A stretch of DNA of 64,000 bases from an uncultured Clostridia bacterium. GTDB lineage: Bacteria; Bacillota; Clostridia; TANB77; CAG-508. Position numbers and translations under genes: made by a program. The stretch lies in NCBI GenBank assembly GCA_934167755.1, contig CAKPLT010000001.1, forward strand, positions 161,753 to 225,752. The letters run 5' to 3'. Shown here one piece after another: positions 39,315-64,000 of the stretch. Within the stretch, counting starts at the first letter, position 1. The number at the start of each line of letters is the position of its first letter. The notes under the pieces are model-generated. The model made no database searches, had not been told where the DNA came from, and saw only the letters and a program-made list of their open reading frames with translations.

Positions 39315-39326
39315 AAGGAGAAAAAA

Positions 39327-40901
39327 ATGAATGTAGCAGAAAAACAAAATAAGCAACAATCAGAATTACACTCTAAATTATGGAGTATGGCAAATGATTT
39401 AAGAGGAACAATGGATGCTTCTGAATTTAAAAATTATATATTAGGATTAATATTTTATAGATTTTTATCAGAAAGATTAGTAAGTTACATAGAAGAAAAA
39501 CTTTTAAATAAAGATAAACTAACATATGAACAAGCATGGAAAAAAGAAGAATATAGGGAAGCAATAATTGAAGATCTAACAAAAGATAGTGATGTAGGAT
39601 ATGTTATTGAGCCAGAATATTTATTTTCTAATTTGATAAAATTAGTAGAAACAGGTGATTTTGATATATCAATATTACATAAAGCAATTAATAAAGTTTC
39701 AGAATCAACACTTGGAAATGCTAGTCAACATGATTTTGAAAATTTGTTTGAAGATATGGACTTAAGTTCTTCAAAATTAGGTAGAGGTGAAAAAGAAAGA
39801 AGTAAGTTAATAGGAACAATTATGCAAAAGATAAATGATATAGATTTTGCATTTGAAGATACAGAAATTGATGTTTTAGGAGATGCATATGAATATCTAA
39901 TAGGACAATTTGCAGCAAGTGCAGGTAAAAAAGCAGGAGAATACTATACACCACAACAAGTTTCAAACATACTTGCTAAAATAGTAACAATGGATATTAA
40001 AGACTTAAAGAATGTATATGATCCAACTTGTGGTTCTGGTTCATTATTGTTAAGAGTAGCAAGACAAAAAGATGTAAAAGTAAGTGCGTTTTATGGACAA
40101 GAAAAGGTTAGTACGACATACAACTTGGCTAGAATGAATATGTTACTTCATAGAGTTCCTTTTAATAGATTTGACATATATAATGGAGATACTTTAGAAG
40201 ATCCTTGTGAAGAACATATGAAAATGAGATTTCAAGCGATAGTTGCAAATCCACCATACTCTGCTCAATGGTCAGCAGACCAAAAATTTTTAAATGATGA
40301 GAGATTCAGCAATTATGGTAGATTGGCACCAAAATCAAAAGCAGATTATGCATTTATTCAACATATGATTTATCTATTAGATGATAATGGAACAATAGCA
40401 GTAGTATTACCACATGGTGTATTATTTAGAGGAGCAAGTGAAGGGACAATAAGAAAATATTTAATAAAAGATAAAAATTATTTGGATGCAGTAATAGGAT
40501 TACCAGCTAATATATTCTACGGAACTTCTATTCCTACTTGTATATTAGTATTTAAAAAGTGCAGAACAAGTGATAATGTATTATTTATTGATGCCTCAAA
40601 GGACTTTGAACCTGGAAAAAATCAGAATAGATTAAGAGATGAAGATGTAGACAAAATTATAAATACATATAAAAATAGAAAAGAAATAGAAAAATATTGT
40701 CACTTAGCTACTATGGATGAAATAAAAGAAAATGATTACAATTTAAATATACCACGCTATGTAGATACATTTGAAGAGGAAGAAGAAATAGATTTAGATG
40801 CTGTTCAAGTAGAATTAGAAAAAATAGATGAAGAAGACAAAAAAGTAACTGAAGAACTTAATAAGTATTTAAGAGAGTTGGGATTAAAAGAATTAAAATA
40901 G
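39327..40901 (+). CDS. hsdM: Type I restriction-modification methyltransferase M subunit
   Basis: LGDAYEYLIGQFA...GEYYTP..., YDPTCGSGSLLL (motif I), NPPYS (motif IV). Confidence 0.95.
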   Translation: MNVAEKQNKQQSELHSKLWSMANDLRGTMDASEFKNYILGLIFYRFLSERLVSYIEEKLLNKDKLTYEQAWKKEEYREAIIEDLTKDSDVGYVIEPEYLFSNLIKLVETGDFDISILHKAINKVSESTLGNASQHDFENLFEDMDLSSSKLGRGEKERSKLIGTIMQKINDIDFAFEDTEIDVLGDAYEYLIGQFAASAGKKAGEYYTPQQVSNILAKIVTMDIKDLKNVYDPTCGSGSLLLRVARQKDVKVSAFYGQEKVSTTYNLARMNMLLHRVPFNRFDIYNGDTLEDPCEEHMKMRFQAIVANPPYSAQWSADQKFLNDERFSNYGRLAPKSKADYAFIQHMIYLLDDNGTIAVVLPHGVLFRGASEGTIRKYLIKDKNYLDAVIGLPANIFYGTSIPTCILVFKKCRTSDNVLFIDASKDFEPGKNQNRLRDEDVDKIINTYKNRKEIEKYCHLATMDEIKENDYNLNIPRYVDTFEEEEEIDLDAVQVELEKIDEEDKKVTEELNKYLRELGLKELK

Positions 40902-40905
40902 AAAA

Positions 40906-40935
40906 AGGATTACATTTTGAAGTGTAATCCTTTTT
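40906..40935. terminator. Bidirectional terminator hairpin between convergent hsdM and hsdS
   Basis: aggattaca/tgtaatcct stem with T-runs on both strands. Confidence 0.65.
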
Positions 40936-41479
40936 AGATAAACATTTGCTGTAGTAGAGATTTTTTTAAAATATTTAAGTTATTTAAAGTATTTTTTTGC
41001 AAATTTATTTTTCTATCCAAATTTGACAAAATTTTTGCAATTTTTCTTTGATTCTCTAAACATGGAAAAACATCAGTATGTTTTAAAAAATCTTCTACAT
41101 TTACAGACATTCTTTCATAAACAGTTCCTTGTTCATATTTTCTAACTTTATTAATAAAATCAATTCTAGTAAAATAATATTTACAAAAAGATACATCCAT
41201 GATATTAGGATTAATTTCTAAAGTAACATATATTGGGGAAAAAATAGCACTTCCATATTCGTTAATACAAATAACACCAAATTTTAAATTGGCAGGATTA
41301 TAACATAAGTCATTAAGAAGAGTAATTTTATATTCTTTATTATTGGACATAACTAGAAAATCTCTATTGTATCTATCGGATTTATCCAAAATCCCATCTT
41401 TTGATAAAGTTACATGAGGATATTCTAATCCTTTTTCAGAATAGATCTTTCTTTCTTTCAAAAATTTACTAATTTGCAT
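40934..41479 (-). CDS. hsdS: HsdS distal half (TRD2 + C-terminal conserved helix). Out of frame with the upstream TRD1 ORF because of the T8 tract
   Basis: Ends LNILKKSLLQQMFI. The frame stays open upstream of the ATG to 41560 and reads ...KKTGVCQKLFQSIKDD..., the HsdS central conserved region. Confidence 0.75.
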   Translation of the reverse strand: MQISKFLKERKIYSEKGLEYPHVTLSKDGILDKSDRYNRDFLVMSNNKEYKITLLNDLCYNPANLKFGVICINEYGSAIFSPIYVTLEINPNIMDVSFCKYYFTRIDFINKVRKYEQGTVYERMSVNVEDFLKHTDVFPCLENQRKIAKILSNLDRKINLQKNTLNNLNILKKSLLQQMFI

Positions 41480-41495
41480 TTTAAATGTAGTTTTA

Positions 41496-42119
41496 TCATC
41501 TTTTATAGATTGAAATAATTTTTGACATACCCCTGTTTTTTTTATATATCTTAAGGGCTTCTATTTTTCTCTGTTGTAGTTCTATTTTTTTGCTTAAAAA
41601 TTCTAATAATTTAGATACTTTTTCTTGTTCTTCAATTGTGGGCAAATCAATATTTATATTTTTTATTTTTTCACCATATAAATGAACAATAGAATCTCCT
41701 TGAGCATATCTGGCAATAACAATCCTTTTTTTGTTAGATAATAAATAGCTTAAATATTTTCCATTTTGAAATTTTGGTCTCAATACATTTAAATCTCCAC
41801 CAAGAATTACATGATCTTGCAATATACAAGTTGATGTAGAAATATCTAATGCAGTTTCGCCACTACATGGAATTAAAACGTCGTTTATTTTGCTATGAAA
41901 AAGATTTTTATCACTTCTATCAGTATAACTTATAACTTTATCTGTTATTTCATCATACTGTGTATACAACTCTCCATATAGAATACAAGGAAACTTTCCG
42001 TTTTCTTTAATATCAGATTTAGATAATGTGTTTCCTTTATAGAAATCTACTATATCATTTAATTTATATGTATTATATTCATCTTTAAATTCTTTAAATC
42101 TTAGCTTTGGTACTAGCAA
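41496..42119 (-). CDS. hsdS: HsdS proximal half (TRD1 + start of central conserved region), terminating 13 codons after the T8 tract
   Basis: MLVPKLRFKEFKDEY... typical HsdS N-terminus; ...LPTIEEQEKVSKLLEFLSKKIELQQRKIEALKIYKK then frameshifted NRGMSKIISIYKR*. Confidence 0.8.
   Translation of the reverse strand: MLVPKLRFKEFKDEYNTYKLNDIVDFYKGNTLSKSDIKENGKFPCILYGELYTQYDEITDKVISYTDRSDKNLFHSKINDVLIPCSGETALDISTSTCILQDHVILGGDLNVLRPKFQNGKYLSYLLSNKKRIVIARYAQGDSIVHLYGEKIKNINIDLPTIEEQEKVSKLLEFLSKKIELQQRKIEALKIYKKNRGMSKIISIYKR
41536..41543 (-). repeat. Homopolymeric T8 (A8 on the coding strand) tract inside hsdS; removing 1 nt fuses TRD1 and TRD2 in frame
   Basis: Seen in the sequence. With 7 A the reading is ...KIYKKTGVCQKLFQSIKDD... 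in a single frame. Confidence 0.8.
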
Positions 42120-42196
42120 TTTTTCACCTTCATTCTGTCCTTTAGTTTAACCTTAAAGGTCAAGAAAAGTATATCATAAAAAATTTAAAATTGGAA

Positions 42197-43192
42197 TTAT
42201 TTTAGAATTTTTTCTTGAAAATTTTTACAAATTAAATTTATACATTTCTTTTTTTGAGACATTTGAGGATGCACATATAAATTTAAAGTAATATTTACAG
42301 TAGCATGTCCTAATAATTCACTAACCGTCTTATAATCTACACCTAATTTGATACAATTAGTTGCAAAAGTGTGCCTAAGGCCATGAAAATTAATTTTATC
42401 TATTTGGGCTTTTTTTGAAATTCTTTCAAAATATCTCCTATATGTTCTTGGCTCTATCCATTTGTTGTTACAAGATAATATATAATCATTTGAATTGGTT
42501 TTATATTTCTTTAATTCGTATGCAAATTCTTTATTAAGTGGTATTTCTCTTTCGGCATTGTGAGTTTTTGGATTTGTTATTATAACTTTTGAAGCATTAA
42601 TGTGTGTATCTTTAATATATACCCTTTGAAGGGTTTTATTTATATGTAAAATATTGTTTTTAAAATCAATATCCTTCCATTGTAATGCACATAGTTCGCC
42701 TATTCTAATTCCAGAATATAAAGTCAACAAAATTCCTAAACTTTTAATAGACTGATTCTTTAAAATGTAATTTGTTAATTTATCTTGATTTTGCTTTGAG
42801 AGAGTATATATCTTATCTTTTATATTAGTTTTCGGATAAATAAAATCAAGGCTTACACTTTCAATTAATCCTTCCTTAGTTGCAGCTTTTAGACTGCTTT
42901 TTATTATAGCAATTATATCCCTAATTGTTTTGCTTGATAGTCCTCCTGAATTATCCAATCTACCATTTTTATATTTTTCTAATAAAAATTTTTGAATTAT
43001 CTTATTATTTAATTCATTAAGATAATATTTTCCTAAATCTGGTACTATATGGTTAGAAATAATATTAGAATAATTTGCATATGTGGATTCTTTAATATAA
43101 TCTTTTTTATATGATAGCCAATCCCAAATCCAATATTCATATAATATTTTGTTTTTTGCTTTAAATAGCATCTTTTTCACCTCCATATACAT
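42197..43192 (-). CDS. Tyrosine site-specific recombinase (phage integrase family) directly upstream of hsdS
   Basis: C-terminal catalytic region ...INFHGLRHTFATNCIKLG...LLGHATVNITLNLYVH (R...H-x-x-R...Y). Confidence 0.85.
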   Translation of the reverse strand: MYMEVKKMLFKAKNKILYEYWIWDWLSYKKDYIKESTYANYSNIISNHIVPDLGKYYLNELNNKIIQKFLLEKYKNGRLDNSGGLSSKTIRDIIAIIKSSLKAATKEGLIESVSLDFIYPKTNIKDKIYTLSKQNQDKLTNYILKNQSIKSLGILLTLYSGIRIGELCALQWKDIDFKNNILHINKTLQRVYIKDTHINASKVIITNPKTHNAEREIPLNKEFAYELKKYKTNSNDYILSCNNKWIEPRTYRRYFERISKKAQIDKINFHGLRHTFATNCIKLGVDYKTVSELLGHATVNITLNLYVHPQMSQKKKCINLICKNFQEKILK

Positions 43193-43248
43193 TATACAAC
43201 GAGTGTCTTTTTAGTATATTAAGGTTAAAAAAAGGACTAATTCAAAAA

Positions 43249-43818
43249 ATGTATCAGAAAAATTATAATAATAAAATAAAAATGGAAAAGATTCTTATAC
43301 AAAAATCTATAAGAAATACTAATGATGAAAATTATAATGTATATAGCGTTAGCAACAAAGATGGTTTTATATTACAAACAGAACAGTTTAAAGATAGAAT
43401 CGTAGCAAGTGAAGATACTAAAAATTATAAAGTGGTAGAAAAAGATGATTTTGCATATAACCCGGCACGTATAAATGTGGGATCTATTGCAAGAATGAAA
43501 AAAGATACAAAGGGCATAATAAGTCCTATGTATATATGTTTTAAATGTAATGAAGAAATACTACCAGAATATTTAGAATATTTTTTTGAATCATCTAAAT
43601 TTACATATGAAATGAATAAAAGGCTTGAAGGAAGCGTAAGAATGTGTTTATCATACGAATCAATGTTAAATATACCGATAGAATTACCAAATAAAAATGA
43701 ACAAGAAGAAATATCAAAAATTCTTAACAATTTAAGTGATAAAATAAAATTAGAAGAAGAAAAGTGGATTAAATTAAAGAAATTAAAGAGAGGATTATTA
43801 CAGAAAATGTTTATATAG
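43249..43818 (+). CDS. hsdS: Half-size HsdS (single TRD + C-terminal conserved helix) in opposite orientation to the main hsdS
   Basis: YNVYSVSNKDGF...FAYNP...GSIA and a C-terminus LKKLKRGLLQKMFI nearly identical to the hsdS C-terminus. Confidence 0.72.
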   Translation: MYQKNYNNKIKMEKILIQKSIRNTNDENYNVYSVSNKDGFILQTEQFKDRIVASEDTKNYKVVEKDDFAYNPARINVGSIARMKKDTKGIISPMYICFKCNEEILPEYLEYFFESSKFTYEMNKRLEGSVRMCLSYESMLNIPIELPNKNEQEEISKILNNLSDKIKLEEEKWIKLKKLKRGLLQKMFI

Positions 43819-44275: not shown

Positions 44276-45460
44276 CTACTTCATAGAAACATTACTAACC
44301 AACATATTCTCCAACAACTCTGCACTAGCCCTATCAGTAGACTCCAAATCATGAACATAAAACTTCAAAGTAGTATCAGTACTAGCATGACCTAATTTAT
44401 GAGAAACAGTCTTAACATCAACATTACCAGAAATAAGCAAAGTAGCAAAAGTATGTCTCAAATCATGAAAACGAATATGAGGAAAACCATTCCTAGTTAA
44501 GAAAGAACTAAACCATTTAGGACCAGTTGCAGGATTCATAATTCTACCATCAGCAGTAGTAAAAACATTTTTAGCACTTTTCCAAGATTTACCCAGAGCA
44601 AGTCTCATCTTACTTTGCTCACATCTCCATTGTTTAAGCAAATCAAAGCAAATACTAGGTACTGCTATTGTACGAGTACTTAAATCCGTTTTAGGACTCT
44701 TCTCAGAAGTAGGTTGACCACTTAAATAATAGGCACTTCTTTTAATACTTATTTTATGATTTTTAAAATCAATATCATCCCAATGCAAACCAACTAATTC
44801 ACCACGTCTAAAACCAGTTAATATAGCAAGAATAACAAAACATTTATATTTTATAGGAGCCTTTTTAAGTAGGACATTTATTAATCTTTTAGATGTTTCT
44901 TCATCATAACATGTCATTTTAGTACGTTTAAATTTAGGTTGAACAACTTTAGTACATGGATTATATGAAACCATGTCCCACCTGAGAGCATTACTGAAAA
45001 TGCTAGATAATATTTCATGAGCGCGATGTACACTAGCTGGAGATAAAGTTTTATAATTACCATTTTTGTCTTTTCTATTAGTTGGTTTAGTTAGCAAAAA
45101 ATCATACAGATTATCCAAATCCAAAAGTTTTATTTTATCAAGTCGCTTATTACCTAAATATGGCAAAATATGTTTATTTAATTTTTCGTTATAACTTTGG
45201 TAAGTTGTAGGCGAAAGATTAGGTTTTACATATGTTTCTAACCATTGCTTACTAAAATCATTTAATGTCACTTTTTTCGCAGAATATGTGCAACCGCCTT
45301 CAATTGAAGTGATAAATTTTGCAAGTTCTTTTTCGGCTTCTCTTTTAGATGAACAAGTAACAGTTTTATTAAAATATTTTCTTTTACCATTTGAATCGAA
45401 ACCATTACTAACACGAAGTCTATATTTTTCATTTCCCATATATAGAATGTTTCCTGCCAA
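44276..45460 (-). CDS. int: Tyrosine integrase (element 1)
   Basis: N-terminal MAGNILYMGNEKYRLRV...; C-terminal RFHDLRHTFATLLISGN...LGHASTDTTLKFYVH. Confidence 0.9.
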   Translation of the reverse strand: MAGNILYMGNEKYRLRVSNGFDSNGKRKYFNKTVTCSSKREAEKELAKFITSIEGGCTYSAKKVTLNDFSKQWLETYVKPNLSPTTYQSYNEKLNKHILPYLGNKRLDKIKLLDLDNLYDFLLTKPTNRKDKNGNYKTLSPASVHRAHEILSSIFSNALRWDMVSYNPCTKVVQPKFKRTKMTCYDEETSKRLINVLLKKAPIKYKCFVILAILTGFRRGELVGLHWDDIDFKNHKISIKRSAYYLSGQPTSEKSPKTDLSTRTIAVPSICFDLLKQWRCEQSKMRLALGKSWKSAKNVFTTADGRIMNPATGPKWFSSFLTRNGFPHIRFHDLRHTFATLLISGNVDVKTVSHKLGHASTDTTLKFYVHDLESTDRASAELLENMLVSNVSMK

Positions 45461-46863: not shown

Positions 46864-49077
46864 TTGAATATTTATGAGCAAATAAAAAATAGTGTAACAA
46901 ACAAAGAGGTAGCAATTCATTATTTAGGACAACCAGTTAGAAAATCTGCAAACTATTTATTATATTCCTCACCTTTTAGAAAAGATAAAAATCCATCTTT
47001 TGCAGTTAATGATAAAGGTTTTATAGACTTTGGAGATAAAGAACATTGTGGAGATATGATTCAATTTGTAAAACAATTAAAAGGGTGTCAATATCCACAT
47101 GAAGCAGCAAAAATAATAGTAGAAGACTTGGGACTAAATATAACAATTCCAGAGAATATAAAAAATGTAAAAGAGAAGAAAAGTAAGAAAAAGTTTAGTG
47201 AATTATGTTTTGAAAAAGGAAATAAATCTAATAATATAATTTGCATGTTTGACTCACAAAAATATAATTCAAAACCAGCAAAGGAGCAAATAGGATATAT
47301 AAAAAATAGAATTTCAAAACTAAGAATGCAGGAATATAGATTAGAAGAAATAGAAAATAATATAATAAATGGCATGACAATAATACCAAGTGGAATAAAA
47401 GGAAATGCACAAGAAAATTGGAAAAAACAACAAATATTTTTAGTTGATTTTGATAACACATATAAAGGGGAAAAGTTATATAGTGATAACCCAAAACACA
47501 TAACAATTGAAAAAATTTTGAATTATTGCAAAAGTATAAACTTTGAATCGACATTTATATACACAACTTTTAGCAATTCTGAAAAACAAACAAAATTTAG
47601 ATTAGCATATGTATTTGAAGAACCAATTACGGAATATTTACTAGCATCTCAGATACCACAAAAATTATTAGAAATTTTTGAAGACTATTATCCAGATACA
47701 TCAAAACAGAATTTATCAGATATGTTTTTTGGAGGGCAAGAAATTCTATACACTTCTGACAACTATTATAAAATTTCAAAAAAGGAATTAGAAATTGAAC
47801 AAATAGAATACCAAGACATAAGTGAACCAGAAAAGATGTCTCATAATGTTATTGCTAATCAACTATTAGAGGAAAATGAAATCCGAGTGTATGAAAATAC
47901 ACTATACATATATGAAAATGGAGTATATAAAAAGAATGAAAAGAGCATCCATAGAAAAATTATAGAAATATATCCTAAATCAACAATTAGAATGCAAAAA
48001 GAAGTTATATCATATTTATTAACAATTGCTCCAGAGGCAGAACTACAATATGACAATTTTATTAATTTTAAAAACGGATTATTTGATTTAAGAACAAATC
48101 AGATAATACAGCATTCACCCCAATATTTTACAGTGAATCAAATAAATATAAATTTAAATTTAAATATTGATCCAATAAAAATTAGTGCAGTAGATAATTT
48201 TTTAGATAGAATAACTTGTGGCAATAACGAAAGAAAGAATGCAATACTGGAGATGATAGGATATTCTATGACTAGTAGTGTAAAGATGCAAAAAGCATTT
48301 GTATTATATGGTAAAACCGCAGGAAATGGAAAGTCTACTCTCTTAGAAATTATTGAAAGATTAATTGGAAGAGAAAATATAAGTCATGTAACATTGCAAG
48401 ATTTTGTTAGTAATAGATTTAGTGTTTCTGAAATAAAGGGAAAATTGGTTAATATAGTATCTGAAATGACAAAAGAATTTTTAAAAGATAGTAGTGTTTT
48501 CAAGCAAATTGTTACTGGAGATATTATAACTGTTGAAGAAAAGTTTAAAGATAGATATACAATAAAGCCATATGCTAAATACATTTTTACAGCAAATGAA
48601 CTGCCAAAAGTCGCAGATACTAGTAATGGATATTTCAGAAGACTTTTTATAATTCCATTTGAGGCTGTATTTACAGAAACAGAAAAAAGTAATTTCAACT
48701 TTAATGAATTGGTAACGCAACAAGCATTAGAATATTTGGCAGCAATATCATTAAAAGAATATATAAAAGCAGTAAGAAAAAATAAATTCTCTAATGTAGA
48801 GGAAAGTCAAAACATTATAGAATCATATAAAATGGATAGTAATACAGTAATAGCGTATTTATATGATAAAGATAGAATGAGAAGTTTATTAAGAAGCGGA
48901 AGAGTTAAAAAAAGAAATGAAGTATTTGCAGATTATATCAATTATTGCAAAGACTCTGGTTATATACACAAAGGCAGAAATAAGTTTTATGAAGAAGTTG
49001 AATCAACAGGGGTAGTACAAAAAGGTGTATATAATGGATATGATACATATATTTTTGATAAATCACTAATAAAATAG
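46864..49077 (+). CDS. Phage/plasmid primase-helicase (N-terminal CHC2 zinc finger primase + P4/D5-type SF3 NTPase), TTG start
   Basis: CHC2 region ...SPFRKDKNPSFAV...HCGD...; Walker A VLYGKTAGNGKST; Walker B/arginine-finger region. Confidence 0.78.
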   Translation: MNIYEQIKNSVTNKEVAIHYLGQPVRKSANYLLYSSPFRKDKNPSFAVNDKGFIDFGDKEHCGDMIQFVKQLKGCQYPHEAAKIIVEDLGLNITIPENIKNVKEKKSKKKFSELCFEKGNKSNNIICMFDSQKYNSKPAKEQIGYIKNRISKLRMQEYRLEEIENNIINGMTIIPSGIKGNAQENWKKQQIFLVDFDNTYKGEKLYSDNPKHITIEKILNYCKSINFESTFIYTTFSNSEKQTKFRLAYVFEEPITEYLLASQIPQKLLEIFEDYYPDTSKQNLSDMFFGGQEILYTSDNYYKISKKELEIEQIEYQDISEPEKMSHNVIANQLLEENEIRVYENTLYIYENGVYKKNEKSIHRKIIEIYPKSTIRMQKEVISYLLTIAPEAELQYDNFINFKNGLFDLRTNQIIQHSPQYFTVNQININLNLNIDPIKISAVDNFLDRITCGNNERKNAILEMIGYSMTSSVKMQKAFVLYGKTAGNGKSTLLEIIERLIGRENISHVTLQDFVSNRFSVSEIKGKLVNIVSEMTKEFLKDSSVFKQIVTGDIITVEEKFKDRYTIKPYAKYIFTANELPKVADTSNGYFRRLFIIPFEAVFTETEKSNFNFNELVTQQALEYLAAISLKEYIKAVRKNKFSNVEESQNIIESYKMDSNTVIAYLYDKDRMRSLLRSGRVKKRNEVFADYINYCKDSGYIHKGRNKFYEEVESTGVVQKGVYNGYDTYIFDKSLIK

Positions 49078-53277: not shown

Positions 53278-53476
53278 TTAAATGTATTTATTGCAAGGAG
53301 TAGTATGATACTCCTTTTTTCTACGGTTTCTTTGTCACACATTGGTCACACTCTCCACAAAAACACCCAAATTTAAACACAATTTAACACAAACAAAAAA
53401 TCACCAATATCACCGAATAACTTACTCTAACAAGGTAAAACACAAATCTACAAAATTCAACAATATCAGCACTTAC

Positions 53477-53524
53477 GGGCTCATAACCCAAAGGTCACAA
53501 GTTCGAGTATTGTCCCCGCAACCA
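53477..53524 (+). other. Diverged 3' half of tRNA-fMet (anticodon loop to CCA end); att-site-like remnant next to the second integrase
   Basis: gggctcataacccaaaggtc + acaagttcgagtattgt + ccccgcaacca versus the tRNA-fMet sequence gggctcataacccaaaggtc gtaggttcgagtcctac tcccgcaacca. There is no 5' half. Confidence 0.6.
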
Positions 53525-53717
53525 AGAATTTAACTAGAGTCGCAAGAGATTGTGGCTCTTTAATTTTTTTGCTAAAAATCTATTTTTATAAAAGTGGGGA
53601 CAATTTGGGGACAGTCCCTACATTTTTATGCATTAAATAGCACATTTTAGCCTTACTAATTTATATTAAACTTAGAAAATCAAAAAAGTAATTTTTGAGA
53701 AATTTTGAAAAGAGTTT

Positions 53718-54893
53718 TTATGCGAGCACTTTCTCTAAAACATTACCAGCTTCCTTATTATTAGCCTCAACTGGATGCACATAGAAGTTTAAGGTAGTTG
53801 TTATTTGAGCATGCCCTAATCTTGATGCTATAACTGCTACATCCACATTTTGTGAAACGAGCAAAGTAGCATTTGTGTGTCGCAAACCATGGAAAGTAAT
53901 TTTTGGTAGATTGTTCTTTTCAATGAAAGAACGAAACCAATCTGTAACAGTATCAGGATGCATTGGCTTACCATTCCAAGTAACAAATAGTCTATTTGAG
54001 TTAACCCATAAGTTGCCACATTTTTCTTTTTCTTGATCATACCAAGCTTTATACTTATTAAGCGTATTTATTACAATATCAGGTATTCCGACTTTCCTAA
54101 TTGAACTACGAGTCTTTGGATCTTTTACGAAAATGCCTTTATCTGCAATATACTGACTAGACTTAGTAATATTAACAAATCCATTCTCAAAGTCGATATC
54201 TGACCATTCTAAGCCCAATACTTCGCCTCTACGCATACCAGTAAACAATGTTAATATAACAATAGTTTGAAATTTGATTTCTTCATTTTCTAATGCCTCT
54301 AGTAATTGTTTACATTGAACATCATCATAGTATTTAATTTGAGGTCTTTCATGCTTAGGTGGTTTTACTCTATCTGCTGGATTATAAGGTAGTATTTGCC
54401 AATATACAGCATTTTGTAACATAGCGTGTAGTAAGCGATGGTGCTCTAGTATTGTTTTAGAGGATAAGCCTTTCATTACAGTCTTTCCATTATGATTTTT
54501 ACATCTTTTAAGTTGATGATCTTTTGAAAGATAATCGTAAAAACTCATAATGTGAGTTGGTTTAATATTGCATAACTTATAATGACCGAAGTAGGGGATA
54601 ATTCGTGATTTTAGCATTTCTTTATATCTTTCATAAGTTTTAGGTGCTAATTCTTTTTCACCATAATTTTTAGCCCATAAATCTGTAAATTCTTTAAAGG
54701 TCATTGAAGAGTTCTGTAAAACAATACCATTTTCTATCTCATAAACAAAGTTCACAAGTTCTTTGTCTGCTTCACGTCTACTATTTGCTTTAATGCTTTT
54801 GGTATATCTAATTCTGTTACCATAGCTGTCATAACCATGAGATACAATTAATCTCCAAGAGCGTTTGCCTCTCTTTTCAAGATACCCTGCCAT
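53718..54893 (-). CDS. int: Tyrosine integrase (element 2), paralogue of 44276-45460
   Basis: MAGYLEKRGKRSWRLIV... with an AGGAGGTG RBS; C-terminal ...ITFHGLRHTNATLLVSQN...LGHAQITTTLNFYVH. The ORF-track N-terminal extension is rejected. Confidence 0.9.
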   Translation of the reverse strand: MAGYLEKRGKRSWRLIVSHGYDSYGNRIRYTKSIKANSRREADKELVNFVYEIENGIVLQNSSMTFKEFTDLWAKNYGEKELAPKTYERYKEMLKSRIIPYFGHYKLCNIKPTHIMSFYDYLSKDHQLKRCKNHNGKTVMKGLSSKTILEHHRLLHAMLQNAVYWQILPYNPADRVKPPKHERPQIKYYDDVQCKQLLEALENEEIKFQTIVILTLFTGMRRGEVLGLEWSDIDFENGFVNITKSSQYIADKGIFVKDPKTRSSIRKVGIPDIVINTLNKYKAWYDQEKEKCGNLWVNSNRLFVTWNGKPMHPDTVTDWFRSFIEKNNLPKITFHGLRHTNATLLVSQNVDVAVIASRLGHAQITTTLNFYVHPVEANNKEAGNVLEKVLA

Positions 54894-54945
54894 TACTTTT
54901 TCACCTCCTTTCAGCATACCTATGGCAAGGATTTTATATATTAAA

Positions 54946-55941
54946 TTATTTTTTCCTAACTTTAGTACTATTAATCCAGTCTTGAAATTCTTTTGCTGTA
55001 ATTTCTCCATCAATAAATTTTTTCCTAATTGTAGGACCTTCTTTTTTGAAATATTCATACATTTCATGTTTTTCTCTTTCAGATGCTTGCTTTGAAAGAG
55101 TTTGATATCTACTTCTATAAGCTTTAAGAATAGGCTTCTGCGCTAAACTTTCTTTATAGGCTAGTTCTCTACCAAATTCTTTACATGTTTTATTATCTTT
55201 AAATACTTCATCGCAATATTTAGTATCATGCATAGTTTTTGGAATAAAGTATTTACCACAATTAGCACATTTTTTTATCTTAATATTACTATCTAAAGAC
55301 AATAACTGTTTATATGAGATAAATAACACATTAAGATAATCATCAGTTCTAAAAGAATATGGAATACTTTTAGGCAGATTAAGTTCTTTATGAAAATAGT
55401 AAAAGTCATCCATAGTAAAATCTAATGTTAAATCATTTATCCTATAACTTAAGTTTATTAAATCAAAATTAGCAGATTCATCTTCAAATAAATCAGGAAA
55501 TTCTGCTCTAAAATCAGCCTCGATTTTATCGAATTCTTTAGGGCTTATATTTTCTTTTTCACTTGTTATAAGATTAATAAATATATCTTGATAAAATTCA
55601 AAGTCATCTTCATATTCAGATTGTAAGGTAAAGAATAAGTCTGATAATGCCTGTTCTGTTATGTAAAAGTTATCATTTTTATAATATTTAGATATATTTA
55701 ATTTGGATTTTTTAGCCAATTTGAATAATAAATCCTCTAAACAGTAATTAGCTATAAAGTTAACCATATCTTCACCGTTTTCAATATCTATATTGAGAAA
55801 ATCTAAAAGAATGCTACCAATAGGTCTTATTTCACAACGATTTACAGATTTGAATATAAATCCTTTCTTTTTCTTAATAGAAAAGTGATTTAAACATTCT
55901 GTTTTATTATTAGTATCGAAAGCAATATTATATAGTGACAT
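54946..55941 (-). CDS. Zn-ribbon protein (CANCGKYF...C...C), paralogue of 45473-46189
   Basis: Shared motif block with the element 1 protein. Confidence 0.5.
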   Translation of the reverse strand: MSLYNIAFDTNNKTECLNHFSIKKKKGFIFKSVNRCEIRPIGSILLDFLNIDIENGEDMVNFIANYCLEDLLFKLAKKSKLNISKYYKNDNFYITEQALSDLFFTLQSEYEDDFEFYQDIFINLITSEKENISPKEFDKIEADFRAEFPDLFEDESANFDLINLSYRINDLTLDFTMDDFYYFHKELNLPKSIPYSFRTDDYLNVLFISYKQLLSLDSNIKIKKCANCGKYFIPKTMHDTKYCDEVFKDNKTCKEFGRELAYKESLAQKPILKAYRSRYQTLSKQASEREKHEMYEYFKKEGPTIRKKFIDGEITAKEFQDWINSTKVRKK

Positions 55942-58738: not shown

Positions 58739-59083
58739 ATGAGTAAATTTAAAACTTTTTTGAATAAAAAATTAAAAAGCAAAAAAATAAGCCAGAACAA
58801 ATTTGCAAGAATGATTGATGTTACACCGACCTATGTAAATAAAATGATAAATGGTACAAGCGGACCACCAGACAGGGGTTTACAAATAAAAATTGCAAAT
58901 AGTTTAGAAATAGAAGGGGAAGAAAGAAATAAGTTCTTCAATAACTTAGCAAAAGAAAAAGACGATATTCCTTCCGATATATATGAAGGTATTTTTTGCA
59001 ATAAAAATAGCTGGGACAAAATAAGAGAACTATTAAAAAAAGAAAAAATTATAAAAATAAATTTATCTGGCAGAAAAGGATAG
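58739..59083 (+). CDS. XRE-family HTH transcriptional regulator, directly upstream of hsdM2
   Basis: ISQNKFARMIDVTPTYVNKMINGT Cro/C1-type HTH. Confidence 0.7.
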   Translation: MSKFKTFLNKKLKSKKISQNKFARMIDVTPTYVNKMINGTSGPPDRGLQIKIANSLEIEGEERNKFFNNLAKEKDDIPSDIYEGIFCNKNSWDKIRELLKKEKIIKINLSGRKG

Positions 59084-59098
59084 ATATAGGGGGATAAG

Positions 59099-60673
59099 AT
59101 GATGGATAATAAAAAAGAAAAAGAAAGAGATGAACTTCATAAAACAATATGGAAAATGGCGGATGAATTAAGAGGCGCTGTTGATGGATGGGATTTTAAA
59201 CAATATGTATTAGGACTATTATTTTATAGATTTATATCAAAAAATATAGAAAACTATGTTAATACTAATCAGAGAAAATTAGGAAAAAAAGACTTCGAGT
59301 ACAAAAATCTTTCTAATGAGGACGCAGAATATGGTAGGGAAGATATTTTAAATGATAAGGGATTCTTTATTTTGCCAAGTGAGTTATTTTGTAATGTTAG
59401 AAAAAAGGCAAAAGTAAATCCTGATTTAAATATAACAATACATAAAGTTTTTGAAAATATAGAAGCATCTGCTAAAGGGACAGCATCAGAAAAAGCAGTT
59501 AAAGGTTTATTTGATGATTTTGATGTTAAAGGAAATAAATTAGGAAATACAGTAGATGAAAAAAATGAGAAATTAATTAAAATGCTAGATGCAATTGGAG
59601 ATTTGAAATTAGGTAATTACTCAGATAATACAATTGATGCTTTTGGAGATGCATATGAATATTTAATGACAATGTATGCATCCAATGCTGGTAAGTCTGG
59701 AGGAGAATTTTTTACACCACAAGAAGTTGGTGAATTGCTTGCTAAAATTGTAATAATGGATAAAAAAGAAGTAAATAAAGTATATGATCCATGCTGTGGA
59801 TCTGGAGGATTATTGTTAAAGTTCGCAAAAATACTTGGAAAAGAAAACATAAAAAATGGTTTTTATGGGCAAGAAATTAATTTAACGACATATAACCTAG
59901 CTAGAATAAATATGTTTTTACATGACATTAATTATAATAATTTTGACATATCTAGAGGAGACACTTTAACAAATCCTATGAATTGGGATGATGAGCCTTT
60001 TGATGCAATAGTATCTAATCCACCATATTCTATTCATTGGGCGGGAAAATCAGACCCGTTATTAATAAATGATGAAAGATTTGCACCAGCAGGAATACTT
60101 GCACCAGAATCAAAAGCAGATCTTGCATTTACGATGCATATGTTATCATGGTTAAGTCAAAAAGGAACAGCTGCAATAGTTCAATTTCCAGGAGTATTAT
60201 ATCGTGGTGGAGCAGAACAAAAAATTAGAAAATATATGGTAGATAACAATTTTGTAGATACTGTTATTCAATTGCCAAGTGATTTATTTTTTGGTACATC
60301 TATAGCAACATGTATATTAGTATTAAAAAAATCAAAAAAAACTAACGATATACTAATTATTGATGCTTCAAATAAATTTATAAGAAACTCCAATAAAAAT
60401 AAGTTATCTCCAGATAATATAAATTGGATTATAGACAAAATCAAAAATAGAAAAGGCAAAGAAAATGAACCAGTAGTAGTAGTAGCTAATGAAGAAGTAG
60501 AAAAAAATAATTATAATATATCAGTCAATACATACATAAAGAATAATTTGGAAGAAGAAAAAATTGATATAAAAGAAGTAAATAAAAATATAAAAGAAAT
60601 AGTGAAAAGAGAAAACAAAATTAGAATTGAACTTGATAAAATAATCCAAGAATTGGAGGAAGATAATGAGTAA
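59099..60673 (+). CDS. hsdM: Type I R-M methyltransferase M subunit (system 2)
   Basis: FGDAYEYLMTMYA...GEFFTP; YDPCCGSGGLLL; NPPYS. Confidence 0.95.
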   Translation: MMDNKKEKERDELHKTIWKMADELRGAVDGWDFKQYVLGLLFYRFISKNIENYVNTNQRKLGKKDFEYKNLSNEDAEYGREDILNDKGFFILPSELFCNVRKKAKVNPDLNITIHKVFENIEASAKGTASEKAVKGLFDDFDVKGNKLGNTVDEKNEKLIKMLDAIGDLKLGNYSDNTIDAFGDAYEYLMTMYASNAGKSGGEFFTPQEVGELLAKIVIMDKKEVNKVYDPCCGSGGLLLKFAKILGKENIKNGFYGQEINLTTYNLARINMFLHDINYNNFDISRGDTLTNPMNWDDEPFDAIVSNPPYSIHWAGKSDPLLINDERFAPAGILAPESKADLAFTMHMLSWLSQKGTAAIVQFPGVLYRGGAEQKIRKYMVDNNFVDTVIQLPSDLFFGTSIATCILVLKKSKKTNDILIIDASNKFIRNSNKNKLSPDNINWIIDKIKNRKGKENEPVVVVANEEVEKNNYNISVNTYIKNNLEEEKIDIKEVNKNIKEIVKRENKIRIELDKIIQELEEDNE

Positions 60674-61850
60674 AATTAATGATTTAATTAAAAAGATGTG
60701 TTCGGATGGCGTTGAATACCGTAAATTAAATGAATTGTTGGATTATATTCAACCTTCAAGGTATATTGTAAAAAACACAAATTATGATAAAAACTATACA
60801 ATACCAGTTCTAACTGCTGGACAGACTTTTATATTGGGATATACCAATGAAATCGATGGTATTTATAAGGCATCTAAAGAAAAACCAGTAATAATATTTG
60901 ATGACTTTACAACTTCAAATCATTGGGTAGAATTTGATTTTAAAGTAAAATCATCTGCAATGAAAATTCTTGTGCCTAAGACCAATGATTCATTTAAGTT
61001 TATTTATTATTGCATGCAAAATATTGAATATATCCCAAAAGAGCATTCAAGACAATGGATTCAGAAATATAGTGAATTTAAAATACCTTTGCCAAAAAAA
61101 GAAATACAAGAGAAAATAGTAGAGATACTTGATAAATTTGGTGAGTTGGAAGCAGAGTTGGAAGCAGAGTTGGAAGCAAGAAAAAAACAATACGAATTTT
61201 ATAGTAAAAAGATTTTTAAATTTAAAAAACCAGTTAAATATGTTCCAATTGGAGAAATATCTAGCACTATTACAGATTATGTTGCAAATGGTAGTTTTGC
61301 AGAAATAGCAAAAAATGTTCAATATAAAAGCGAACCAGATTATGCGGTATTACTTAGAACAGTAGATTATTCAAATGGATTTAATCCTGATAAATTTGTT
61401 TATATTGATAAACATGCATATGGTTTTTTAAAAAAATCAAAGCTATTTGGTGGAGAGATTATAATTAATAATGTAGGAGCAGGTGTTGGAACCACATTTC
61501 TTTGTCCAAAATTAGATATAAATATGAGCTTGGCTCCAAATTCGATTATGATAAAAACACCGAACAATAAGTTTTATTATTATTGGTTAAAAAGCATATA
61601 TGGACAAGAAGCTATAAAAAGTATTGTATCTAAAAGTGCTATGCCCAAATTTAATAAAACTGAATTTAGAAAAATAATGGTTCCAGTTTTACCGGAGCAA
61701 CAACAAAATGAAATTGTAAATATATTAGAAAAAATTGATAATCTCATAAATGACATATCAGAAGGATTGCCTGCCGAAATTAAACTCAGAAGGAAACAAT
61801 ATGAATATTATCGAAATAAATTATTAAACTTTAAAGAGGTGATTGCTTAA
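60666..61850 (+). CDS. hsdS: Type I R-M specificity subunit (two TRDs) with LEAE x3 in the central conserved region
   Basis: Two TRDs separated by ...GELEAELEAELEARKKQYEFYSKK; C-terminus ...RRKQYEYYRNKLLNFKE. Confidence 0.9.
   Translation: MSKINDLIKKMCSDGVEYRKLNELLDYIQPSRYIVKNTNYDKNYTIPVLTAGQTFILGYTNEIDGIYKASKEKPVIIFDDFTTSNHWVEFDFKVKSSAMKILVPKTNDSFKFIYYCMQNIEYIPKEHSRQWIQKYSEFKIPLPKKEIQEKIVEILDKFGELEAELEAELEARKKQYEFYSKKIFKFKKPVKYVPIGEISSTITDYVANGSFAEIAKNVQYKSEPDYAVLLRTVDYSNGFNPDKFVYIDKHAYGFLKKSKLFGGEIIINNVGAGVGTTFLCPKLDINMSLAPNSIMIKTPNNKFYYYWLKSIYGQEAIKSIVSKSAMPKFNKTEFRKIMVPVLPEQQQNEIVNILEKIDNLINDISEGLPAEIKLRRKQYEYYRNKLLNFKEVIA
61143..61178 (+). repeat. Perfect 12-bp tandem repeat gagttggaagca x3 inside hsdS (central spacer-length region)
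   Basis: Seen in the sequence; encodes (LEAE)3. Confidence 0.9.
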
Positions 61851-62947
61851 TGGATGAATATAATTCAATTGAAGCAGTTTCTGACAAAATAAAAAGCAAT
61901 TTAAATTCAAACAATCAAAATAAGAATGTTTCTATTTTGTATGCTTTTAATGCAACTGGAAAAACAAGATTATCTACAACATTAACTGACGAGATGGATG
62001 ATGGAAAAACATTATGTTATAATGCTTTCGTAGAAGATCTTTTTACATGGGATAATGATAATTATATTTTCAAAATTAATCCATCCTGTTGGTTGGTAGA
62101 ATTTATTAAAGAACAGGGTCTTGAAAATCAAATTATAGAAAATTTTACGAGTATTATTAATTCAAAGGTTGAACCAAGTTTTGAATTAGATAGAGGTGAA
62201 ATTATTTTTAGCATTGCTTCAGGTGATAGTGACTATGATAAAGGAATAAAAATATCTAAAGGAGAAGAAAGCGTATTTATATGGTCAATTTTCTACACAA
62301 TTTTAGAGACAGCAATAGATACATTAAATATGGAAAAAGATGACAGATTTACTGAATTTTTTGATAGTTTAGAGTATGTTATTATAGATGATCCAGTCTC
62401 ATCGATAGATGATTCAAAGATTATTTCAATTGCAATGATGTTGATAAAAGTAATAGATAAATATAAAAACAATAGTAATCATAAATTGAAATTTTTAATA
62501 ACAACTCATCACGCATTATTTTATAATGTTATATATAATCAATATAGGAAAAATAAAGAATATAATTTTAAACCATTCATATTGAAAAAGAAGAATAAAA
62601 TATATGAACTAAAAAATCAGAAAATAGATAGTCCATTTGGATATCATCTAATGGTCAAAGAAGAAATAGAACGAGCCATACAAGAAGAAGATATTCAAAA
62701 ATATCATTTTAATTTATTTAGAAGCTTATTAGAAAAGACAGCAAATTTTTTAGGATATGGTAATTGGGTTGACTGTATTGAAAATGATAAAAAACAAGAA
62801 TTTATAAGAATCATTAATTTATATAGTCATAGTAGATTGTCAGATATTGAATATAGAGAATTAACATATGATGATAAAGAATTATTTATAGATACATATA
62901 ATAAATTTGTTAAGAATTTTAAATGGGGGAAAATAGATGGAGAATAA
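61850..62947 (+). CDS. ABC-ATPase-like protein embedded between hsdS and hsdR; PrrC-like anticodon nuclease candidate
   Basis: Walker A-like NATGKTRLS; Walker B/D-loop-like YVIIDDPVSSID; C-terminal R-x3-E...(32)...H (FRSLLEK...YSHS), the spacing of the PrrC ACNase triad. Start and stop overlap the neighbouring genes. Confidence 0.55.
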   Translation: MDEYNSIEAVSDKIKSNLNSNNQNKNVSILYAFNATGKTRLSTTLTDEMDDGKTLCYNAFVEDLFTWDNDNYIFKINPSCWLVEFIKEQGLENQIIENFTSIINSKVEPSFELDRGEIIFSIASGDSDYDKGIKISKGEESVFIWSIFYTILETAIDTLNMEKDDRFTEFFDSLEYVIIDDPVSSIDDSKIISIAMMLIKVIDKYKNNSNHKLKFLITTHHALFYNVIYNQYRKNKEYNFKPFILKKKNKIYELKNQKIDSPFGYHLMVKEEIERAIQEEDIQKYHFNLFRSLLEKTANFLGYGNWVDCIENDKKQEFIRIINLYSHSRLSDIEYRELTYDDKELFIDTYNKFVKNFKWGKIDGE

Positions 62948-64000
62948 AAGAAATATTATATCTGAGAGTGATAATTCAACAGTATTAACAGAATATAAGC
63001 CATTAGAAAGAAAAGAAACATCATATCAAAGTGAAGCAGAACTTGAGAAAAATTTTATTAAAATATTGCAAGAGCAATCTTATGAATATTTAAATATAAA
63101 TAATGAAAAAGATTTAATAAAAAATCTAAAAGAGAAATTAGAAAAACTAAATAAAATTAAATTTACAGATAAAGAGTGGGAAGATTTATTTAATAACATT
63201 ATTGCTAATCCCAATGATGGAATAATAGAGAAAACAAAAAAAATTCAAGAAGATTATAAGCAAATATTAACATTAGAAAATGGAGAATTAAGAAATATTT
63301 ATTTAATAGATAAAGATAATATTCATAATAATAGCGTTCAAGTAATTAATCAATATGAAGTAGAAACGGATAAAAGAAAAAATAGATATGACGTTACGAT
63401 TTTAGTGAATGGACTCCCTATGGTTCATGTAGAACTGAAAAGAAGAGGTGTTGAATTAAGACAAGCCTTTAATCAAATAGAGAGATATCAAAGAGATTCA
63501 TTTTGGTACAATTCTGGATTATATAATTATGTTCAAATATTTGTTATAAGTAATGGGACATTTACTAAGTATTATTCAAATACTACAAGATATAAACATC
63601 TTGATGGAAAAACTGTAAAAAAGTCTAATTCATTTGAATTTACATCATATTGGGCAGATCAAAATAATAATGGGATTTGTGATTTGGAAGATTTTGCAAG
63701 AACTTTCTTTAGCAAAAGAACATTACTAAATATAATAACTAAATATTGCATTCTTACTTCTGAAGAAGATTTATTAGTAATGAGACCATATCAAATTACA
63801 GCAACAGAAAAAATAATAAATAAAATAGAAATAGCAAATAATTACAATGAATATGGAACAATTGAAGGTGGTGGCTATATATGGCATACAACTGGATCAG
63901 GAAAAACATTGACTTCTTTTAAAACAGCTCAAATAGCAAGTAAGCTTGAATATATAGATAAGGTTATATTTGTAGTAGATAGAAAAGATTTGGATTATCA
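62937..64000 (+). CDS. hsdR: Type I restriction enzyme R subunit (system 2), N-terminal part; continues beyond the window
   Basis: RYDVTILVNGLPMVHVELK nuclease motif; MRPYQITATE...HTTGSGKTLTSF helicase motif I. Open to the window end. Confidence 0.88.
   Translation, partial: MENKRNIISESDNSTVLTEYKPLERKETSYQSEAELEKNFIKILQEQSYEYLNINNEKDLIKNLKEKLEKLNKIKFTDKEWEDLFNNIIANPNDGIIEKTKKIQEDYKQILTLENGELRNIYLIDKDNIHNNSVQVINQYEVETDKRKNRYDVTILVNGLPMVHVELKRRGVELRQAFNQIERYQRDSFWYNSGLYNYVQIFVISNGTFTKYYSNTTRYKHLDGKTVKKSNSFEFTSYWADQNNNGICDLEDFARTFFSKRTLLNIITKYCILTSEEDLLVMRPYQITATEKIINKIEIANNYNEYGTIEGGGYIWHTTGSGKTLTSFKTAQIASKLEYIDKVIFVVDRKDLDY

Follow-up and report, generated by a model that had tools for sequence, protein, structure and literature searches.

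The PrrC family of anticodon nucleases has been known since 1990. Its E. coli prototype, EcoPrrC, joins an N-terminal domain described as an SbcC/Rad50-like ABC nucleoside triphosphatase (NTPase; PMC3710099) to a nuclease site for which Blanga-Kanfi et al. proposed the triad R320-E324-H356 (PMC1484252), and mutagenesis has defined 33 of its residues as essential (PMC3025547). Here we analyse a stretch of 64,000 nucleotides (nt) from an uncultured Clostridia bacterium (GenBank assembly GCA_934167755.1, contig CAKPLT010000001.1, positions 161,753 to 225,752), referred to below as the window, in which an open reading frame (ORF), named X here, lies between the hsdS and hsdR genes of a Type I restriction system. 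Very probably, X is a PrrC-family anticodon nuclease inside a type IC-like operon of the order hsdM-hsdS-prrC-hsdR. The likeness to EcoPrrC and its partner enzyme EcoprrI extends to the two-domain architecture, the NTPase motifs, the PrrC box, the spacing of the R-E-H triad and most of the essential residues, and also to the gene order, the overlapping genes and a type IC-like HsdR in which the EcoR124_C domain occurs. X differs in being 31 amino acids (aa) shorter and in lacking the acidic insert after Walker A, a feature of EcoPrrC in which D68, E69 and E71 are non-essential; in its identity of 39%, a recognition loop two residues shorter and six lineage-specific substitutions at essential positions; and in its host, a low-GC gut bacterium of the Clostridia.

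Three further systems offer points of comparison. The PrrC of Streptococcus mutans (SmuPrrC; Firmicutes, toxic in yeast, PMC3025547) is, by its description, like X in having a Gram-positive host, a Met at the position of H297 and conserved counterparts of R320 and R349. RloC shares with X the AAA_13 family, the combination of an ABC ATPase with an anticodon nuclease (of the HEPN type in RloC, and predicted to be so in X) and the same Arg, Glu and His residues, but is defined by a long, Rad50-like coiled-coil/zinc-hook (CxxC) insert in the ATPase domain, is rarely linked to restriction-modification (R-M) genes and excises the wobble nucleotide (PMC3458546). PARIS follows a logic like that proposed for X: two reports describe how an ABC-type ATPase detects an anti-restriction protein of a phage and then sets free an effector that cleaves tRNA (10.1101/2024.01.02.573894, PMC12409363). 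PARIS differs from X in consisting of two proteins, the ABC ATPase AriA and the Toprim nuclease AriB of unrelated fold, in lying outside an hsd operon and in having no sequence match to X.

Gene X, its family and its operon

The following genes make up the locus, all within the window:

59099..60673, + strand: hsdM, Type I methyltransferase subunit, 524 aa (N6_Mtase E = 6.5e-109, HsdM_N)
60666..61850, + strand: hsdS, specificity subunit, 394 aa (Methylase_S E = 1.2e-24, in two stretches)
61850..62947, + strand: X, predicted prrC-family gene, 365 aa (ORF, PADLOC PrrC, Pfam AAA_13, BLASTP with EcoPrrC, AlphaFold2 model, fold match), with a predicted N-terminal ABC-type NTPase domain (about aa 1-250) and a predicted C-terminal all-helical anticodon-nuclease domain (about aa 255-360)
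62937..64000, + strand: 5' part of hsdR, cut by the end of the window (TIGR00348 E = 5.3e-68)

X runs from an ATG at 61850 to a TAA at 62945-62947, with a strong Shine-Dalgarno sequence, AAAGAGGTGA, ahead of it. Its start codon shares one nucleotide with the hsdS stop codon (61848-61850) in the TAATG at 61848-61852, and the hsdR ATG at 62937 creates an 11-nt overlap with its 3' end; hsdS overlaps hsdM in turn by 8 nt. Independent gene calls gave the same boundaries on public contigs whose overlap with the window is 100% identical. Homologues in the protein database number more than 6000 and go, where a source names them, by 'anticodon nuclease', 'AAA family ATPase' or once, for P0068, 'wobble nucleotide-excising tRNase', and the ratio of nonsynonymous to synonymous substitution rates (dN/dS) of X is 0.127 and 0.152 against its two nearest relatives. 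X is therefore a real gene and no chance ORF; it is under purifying selection, and ratios of this size make decay to a non-functional gene unlikely. The exact protein is present in at least 21 contigs. The six inspected all derive from metagenomes, with Hadza samples as the source of two, and the nearest genomes are metagenome-assembled genomes (MAGs) of uncultured Clostridia. There is no second prrC copy in the window, including the surroundings of its other Type I system.

Profile and pairwise comparisons point to the same family. The PADLOC PrrC model matches aa 11-360 of X with its positions 21-347 of 372 at E = 2.7e-103, the next-best family being PDC-S06 at E = 2.4e-9, and Pfam assigns X to AAA_13 (PF13166) with 39.9 bits against a gathering cut-off of 36. 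A reference for EcoPrrC was sought by tblastn of plasmids. Among the hits were E. coli records whose annotation includes a 396-aa 'anticodon nuclease', and one such record places it within an hsdM-hsdS-prrC-hsdR locus. We took this protein as the EcoPrrC reference because it agrees with all 17 published residue numbers that were checked (K46, K168, K171, D222, H251, D287, S288, F292, Y294, H295, H315, R320, E324, K325, D341, H356 and E371) and also contains the stretch 284-KYGDSNKSFSY-294. BLASTP aligns residues 3-343 of X with it at 39% identity (E = 5e-79). The homology to PrrC that the preliminary description of this DNA had proposed is thus borne out: judged by these alignments, X is homologous to PrrC across its full length, the C-terminal nuclease domain included, and it is almost certainly a member of the PrrC family. 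The family already has a model in defence-annotation tools; X is a member of it that had not been characterised before.

Which of the residues that EcoPrrC needs are retained in X? Alignment places the motifs as follows:

61943..61969, + strand: Walker A / P-loop AFNATGKTR, aa 32-40 (NATGKT from aa 34); K38, T39 and R40 correspond to EcoPrrC K46, T47 and R48
62015..62062, + strand: family-specific PrrC box CYNAFVEDLFTWDNDN, aa 56-71; E62, W67, D68 and N69 correspond to EcoPrrC E88, W93, D94 and N95
62249..62272, + strand: ABC signature / C-loop KISKGEES, aa 134-141; K134 and K137 correspond to EcoPrrC K168 and K171
62375..62413, + strand: Walker B YVIIDD (VIIDD from aa 177) and D-loop SSID (from aa 184); D180, D181, S184, S185, D187 and D188 correspond to EcoPrrC D215, D216, S219, S220, D222 and D223
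62489..62509, + strand: H-loop / switch KFLITTH, aa 214-220; K214, T219 and H220 correspond to EcoPrrC K245, T250 and H251
62627..62647, + strand: DSPFGYH, aa 260-266, counterpart of the tRNA-Lys anticodon-recognition stretch 284-294 of EcoPrrC
62705..62737, + strand: predicted nuclease site, part 1, H286 ... R291-S-L-L-E295-K296; EcoPrrC H315, R320, E324 and K325
62807..62830, + strand: predicted nuclease site, part 2, R320-IIN323-LYS-H327; EcoPrrC R349, N352 and H356

Conservation was scored in an alignment of 120 sequences. Of the 33 essential EcoPrrC residues 27 are identical in X, among them all those attributed to the NTP site, to the PrrC box and to the nuclease site. None of the three Walker A residues K38, T39 and R40 varies among the 120 sequences, and their counterparts are essential to EcoPrrC (PMC3025547). 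The four residues of the PrrC box, a motif defined as family-specific at EcoPrrC residues 68-94 (PMC1484252), fall inside YNAFVEDLFTWDND in X, and their counterparts E88, W93, D94 and N95 are likewise essential (PMC3025547, from which the definitions of the Walker B and D-loop motifs are also taken). Further along, X keeps N226 after the H-loop and, in the nuclease domain, H266, K270, H286, R291, E295, R320, N323 and H327. The counterparts of H286, R291, E295 and K296 are invariant in 120 of 120 sequences, and the same invariance holds for the counterparts of EcoPrrC H295, H315, R320, E324 and H356. The arrangement R291-x3-E295, followed by H327 32 positions beyond E295, has the spacing of R320/E324/H356 in EcoPrrC, while R320-IIN323-LYS-H327 forms an R-x6-H motif of the HEPN type described in PMC3710099. 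The motifs on which the preliminary description had built its case (the Walker A NATGKT, the IIDD/SSID D-loop and the R-x3-E...32 aa...H spacing) are all present where it had placed them, and C-terminal alignment with E. coli PrrC brings the triad and the other essential nuclease residues into register. An AlphaFold2 model of X built on 65 homologues is confident, with a mean predicted local distance difference test (pLDDT) score of 84.2. Its N-domain finds its matches in the PDB among SMC, Rad50 and further ABC heads (Foldseek, best E = 1.5e-5), in agreement with the published picture of the PrrC N-domain, and the C-domain is modelled as a confident helical bundle; a Foldseek search with the whole model recovered the generic SMC/Rad50/ABC head alone.

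The enzyme with which X would be partnered can be classified from its subunits. The full HsdR, read from contigs 100% identical to the window over the overlap, has 1053 aa with HSDR_N, ResIII, T1R_D3-like and EcoR124_C (PF12008) domains and scores 1124.7 bits with the PADLOC REase_I model. HsdM and HsdR are 51% and 41% identical to the EcoprrI subunits encoded at the E. coli prr locus, and this identity, together with the EcoR124_C domain, marks the partner enzyme by its sequence as type IC-like. HsdM is nearer to EcoprrI than to its counterpart in the other Type I system of the window (42%), whereas HsdR is about equally distant from both (39% to the latter). Given that the genes overlap and that no terminator-like site was found on the + strand between 58300 and 64000, hsdM-hsdS-prrC-hsdR is probably a single operon whose genes are co-transcribed and translationally coupled. 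A promoter scan was uninformative, with 43 sites found against 47.7 expected.

The same arrangement recurs among relatives. We collected 80 loci with relatives of X from species-representative genomes, whose hosts include Clostridia, Bacilli, Actinomycetota, Bacteroidota, Pseudomonadota, candidate-phyla bacteria and several archaea. At 63 of these loci prrC is flanked on its own strand by hsdS immediately upstream and hsdR immediately downstream. At most of the others an additional gene precedes hsdR, the order is M-prrC-S-R, or the contig ends. The survey reproduces what the literature states, a constant linkage of prrC to R-M loci, and the proposal that hsdM-hsdS-X-hsdR, with X overlapping both neighbours, has the layout of the prr locus agrees with both the survey and the E. 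coli prr locus.

Some individual loci deserve mention. The order hsdM-prrC-hsdS-hsdR is that of a minority (L024, L027, L037), and six loci (L029, L076, L078, L080, L086, L093) have a gap of about 0.8-1.5 kb between prrC and hsdR, with room for an extra gene. Archaeal MAGs of Methanosarcinales, Woesearchaeota and Thermoplasmatota (L017, L022, L026, L033, L065) encode PrrC homologues 41-55% identical to X with hsd genes adjacent, and close homologues are also found in many candidate-phyla bacteria; the range of the hsdS-prrC-hsdR cassette therefore far exceeds the bacteria studied for it to date. The E. coli reference locus (L001; CP057689.1, 23561-38568) is on a plasmid that also has terminase genes, a late promoter activator and phd/doc and looks like a phage-plasmid; genes for a 3'-phosphatase and a metallophosphoesterase lie just downstream of its hsdR.

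Mechanism, target and alternative explanations

How might X act? We consider it likely that a mechanism of the EcoPrrC type applies overall, and the steps are taken from the E. coli system (PMC1484252, PMC3025547, PMC3710099). X would bind the assembled Type I enzyme and be kept latent by it. Should a phage anti-restriction factor disable the restriction enzyme, the ABC-type NTPase domain of X would relay the signal, after which metal-independent transesterification at the R291/E295/H327 site would break the anticodon loop of a host tRNA, probably tRNA-Lys. Activation by such a factor, with GTP and dTTP, counts among the features that characterise a PrrC anticodon nuclease. As a consequence of tRNA cleavage translation would stop and the infection would be aborted. 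The preliminary description had called X a second-line, tRNA-cleaving abortive-infection module; that view is supported, with activity, latency and tRNA-Lys specificity inferred by analogy with EcoPrrC and EcoprrI.

With regard to the target, the stretch 284-294 of EcoPrrC has a role in how the anticodon of tRNA-Lys is recognised (PMC1484252). Its counterpart in X keeps D260, S261, F263, Y265 and H266, corresponding to D287, S288, F292, Y294 and H295, and within the clade, among the 120 aligned sequences, the D is conserved in 116, the F in 119 and the Y and the H in 120. Retention of these five residues places X in the subset that the literature calls nearer to the tRNA-Lys-specific prototype. 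Because this D-S..F-x-Y-H stretch is retained, tRNA-Lys is the most probable target, and we lean towards it.

Several observations weigh against so close a correspondence with the prototype. T4 Stp is a trigger specific to the E. coli system, and since the host of X is a low-GC gut bacterium of the Clostridia, the trigger of X should not be assumed to be T4 Stp. Among the NCBIfam models none recognises X, the sole match being a negligible one to Rad50, far under the cut-off. The C-domain model has no significant structural neighbour in the PDB, so that its HEPN fold is without independent confirmation; a phmmer search of PDB sequences with X also returned nothing meaningful, from which we conclude that neither PrrC nor RloC has a solved structure. 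X departs from EcoPrrC at six essential residues (N224S, H225K, E262Q, D276N, H297M and N321S), and the toxicity of EcoPrrC is lost with E262Q, with D276N and with every tested substitution of N321 (PMC3025547). All six positions vary across the family in our alignment; Met occupies the H297 position in the toxic S. mutans PrrC as it does in X, and E262 is not conserved in the Xanthomonas homologue (PMC3025547). The recognition stretch DS--PFGYH is two residues shorter than DSNKSFSYH of EcoPrrC. Finally, the PrrC homologues of Neisseria and Xanthomonas are non-toxic in yeast (PMC3025547), and membership of the family is therefore no guarantee of the same target or activity.

The alternative that survives these comparisons best leaves X a true restriction-coupled PrrC nuclease, but with a target RNA other than tRNA-Lys or a trigger unlike that of the E. 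coli prototype. The shortened recognition stretch, the non-toxic homologues of Neisseria and Xanthomonas and an identity to EcoPrrC of just 39% all speak for it, but the counterparts of D287, S288, F292, Y294 and H295 are all in place and near-invariant in the clade of X, and we hold this alternative to be possible but somewhat unlikely. More doubtful is a wider proposal, in which X would belong to a distinct short PrrC clade (about 355-377 aa, loop DSPFxYH) of Clostridia, candidate-phyla bacteria and archaea with a tRNA target or activation signal unlike that of the prototype, and would at the same time be one layer of a co-transferred four-part defence stack, possibly with cross-talk, together with the Type IC restriction enzyme, a Fic-domain protein (PDC-S04) and a large helicase (PDC-S53).

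Very improbable is a reading of X as an ABC-type ATPase, degenerate or regulatory (generic AAA_13, OLD-like or AbiEii-like), that has lost its nuclease and serves as an accessory to restriction. The AAA_13 score barely exceeds its threshold, the C-domain lacks a structural neighbour in the PDB and six essential residues differ, as such an ATPase might lead one to expect; but X has counterparts of H295, H315, R320, E324, R349, N352 and H356, all with a proposed catalytic role, its dN/dS is 0.13-0.15, and the OLD/Toprim and AbiEii families give no match to it at E <= 1 in Pfam or PADLOC. The generic AAA/ABC, AbiEii and OLD identities that the preliminary description had listed as ways in which it might be wrong thus found no support at that threshold. 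Least probable of all, and effectively refuted by the architecture of X, is an enzyme of the RloC type, a self-regulated, wobble-nucleotide-excising tRNase that answers DNA damage and not a restriction partner: AAA_13 membership and nuclease residues common to RloC and PrrC, the source name of the homologue P0068 and a Fic/Doc gene near X, an association reported for RloC-like proteins (PMC3710099), would fit it, but X has no coiled-coil/zinc-hook in its 365 aa (Walker A and the C-loop are only about 95 residues apart), no CxxC (Cys only at 56, 80 and 309), a place inside an hsd operon and a match to the PrrC model at E = 2.7e-103.

Proposed carrier element and neighbouring genes

Returning to X as a PrrC-family gene of a restriction operon, we find that the operon appears to be the cargo of an integrase-bearing element of about 17 kb in this low-GC gut bacterium of the Clostridia. 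The features concerned are these:

53480..53613, + strand: candidate left attachment region with a CTCATAACCC core in a tRNA-Met-like 3' fragment; tentative
53718..55067, - strand: tyrosine integrase (Phage_integrase and SAM_3 domains), proposed left end of the element
58739..59083, + strand: XRE-type helix-turn-helix (HTH) gene, 114 aa, directly upstream of hsdM (HTH_3 E = 2e-7)
Beyond the window end, L002 14379-15314: HTH-Fic protein (PADLOC PDC-S04, E = 9.8e-108)
Beyond the window end, L003 9705-12449: 914-aa AAA_30/UvrD_C helicase (PADLOC PDC-S53, 1160 bits)

After the integrase come genes for a DUF6076 protein, an excisionase-type HTH_17 protein, a Phage_rep_org_N protein and an IstB/DnaC-like ATPase. 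To the right of hsdR, contigs identical to the window in the overlap continue with the HTH-Fic protein, the helicase and a 97-aa gene, beyond which the genes (CBAH, NUDIX) are apparently ordinary. PDC-S04 and PDC-S53 are candidate defence families for which the libraries used give no characterised mechanism; the association of Fic/Doc-type genes with RloC-like proteins in mobile R-M neighbourhoods has already been reported (PMC3710099). The element that carries a relative of 89% identity is comparable and includes a relaxase, GmrSD and further defence genes.

The ends of the element are placed tentatively, because the only pairs found are a short GGGGACA pair and a 10-nt tRNA-Met-like core. 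At the candidate left end, within 53470-53613, is the tRNA-Met-like 3' fragment ...GGGCTCATAACCCAAAGGTCACAAGTTCGAGT...CCCCGCAACCA, whose core resembles the anticodon loop of tRNA-Met; ARAGORN called no tRNA in 53300-53700. The sequence GGGGACAATTTGGGGACA at 53596, with the motif GGGGACA-N4/5-GGGGACA, is unique in the window. Counterparts on the right lie about 16.8 kb away, beyond the window end (L003 12806-12950, window-equivalent about 70347-70490), the 10-nt CTCATAACCC core at about 70347 and a near-identical motif at about 70483. There is also a 17-nt perfect inverted match, ATTTTTGAGAAATTTTG. No exact direct repeat longer than 12 nt flanks the element. The motif, the core and the inverted match may represent attachment (att) and arm sites of the element. 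Carriage on a mobile element, as first proposed, is thus well supported by the gene content, while its exact ends retain a tentative placement. The XRE-type gene has fared less well: among the 80 prrC loci it recurs in one, that of the closest relative, and for this reason we reject it as a conserved controller of the system, a role that the preliminary description had raised as possible; nothing but its adjacency links it to the system.

Two other regions of the window contain comparable genes. A separate integrated element directly upstream of the prrC-bearing one is suggested by an integrase gene at 44276-45460 (-), followed by a D5/primase-helicase gene at 46864-49077 with Zn_ribbon_DnaG, D5_N and DUF5906 domains. 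The second Type I system, at 36561-43818, has no prrC; it comprises hsdR (917 aa, EcoR124_C), hsdM (524 aa) and hsdS half-genes at 40934-41479 (-), 41496-42119 (-) and 43249-43818 (+) around a tyrosine recombinase gene at 42197-43192 (-), a layout that is that of a phase-variable, recombinase-shuffled specificity locus.

Implications for PrrC in gut bacteria

What does a PrrC-family gene in this setting mean? Standard defence-annotation tools would find X, and it opens no new question of its own. Its main value is correct annotation, namely of a predicted tRNA-targeting abortive-infection module in an uncultured human-gut bacterium of the Clostridia, carried on what is apparently a small mobile defence island. 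Experimental work on PrrC has been almost confined to E. coli and a few homologues, and a Gram-positive gut PrrC with a slightly different loop could inform how target specificity varies within the family. X could also inform which anti-restriction factors of gut phages trigger PrrC, and whether phage tRNAs or tRNA repair counter it.

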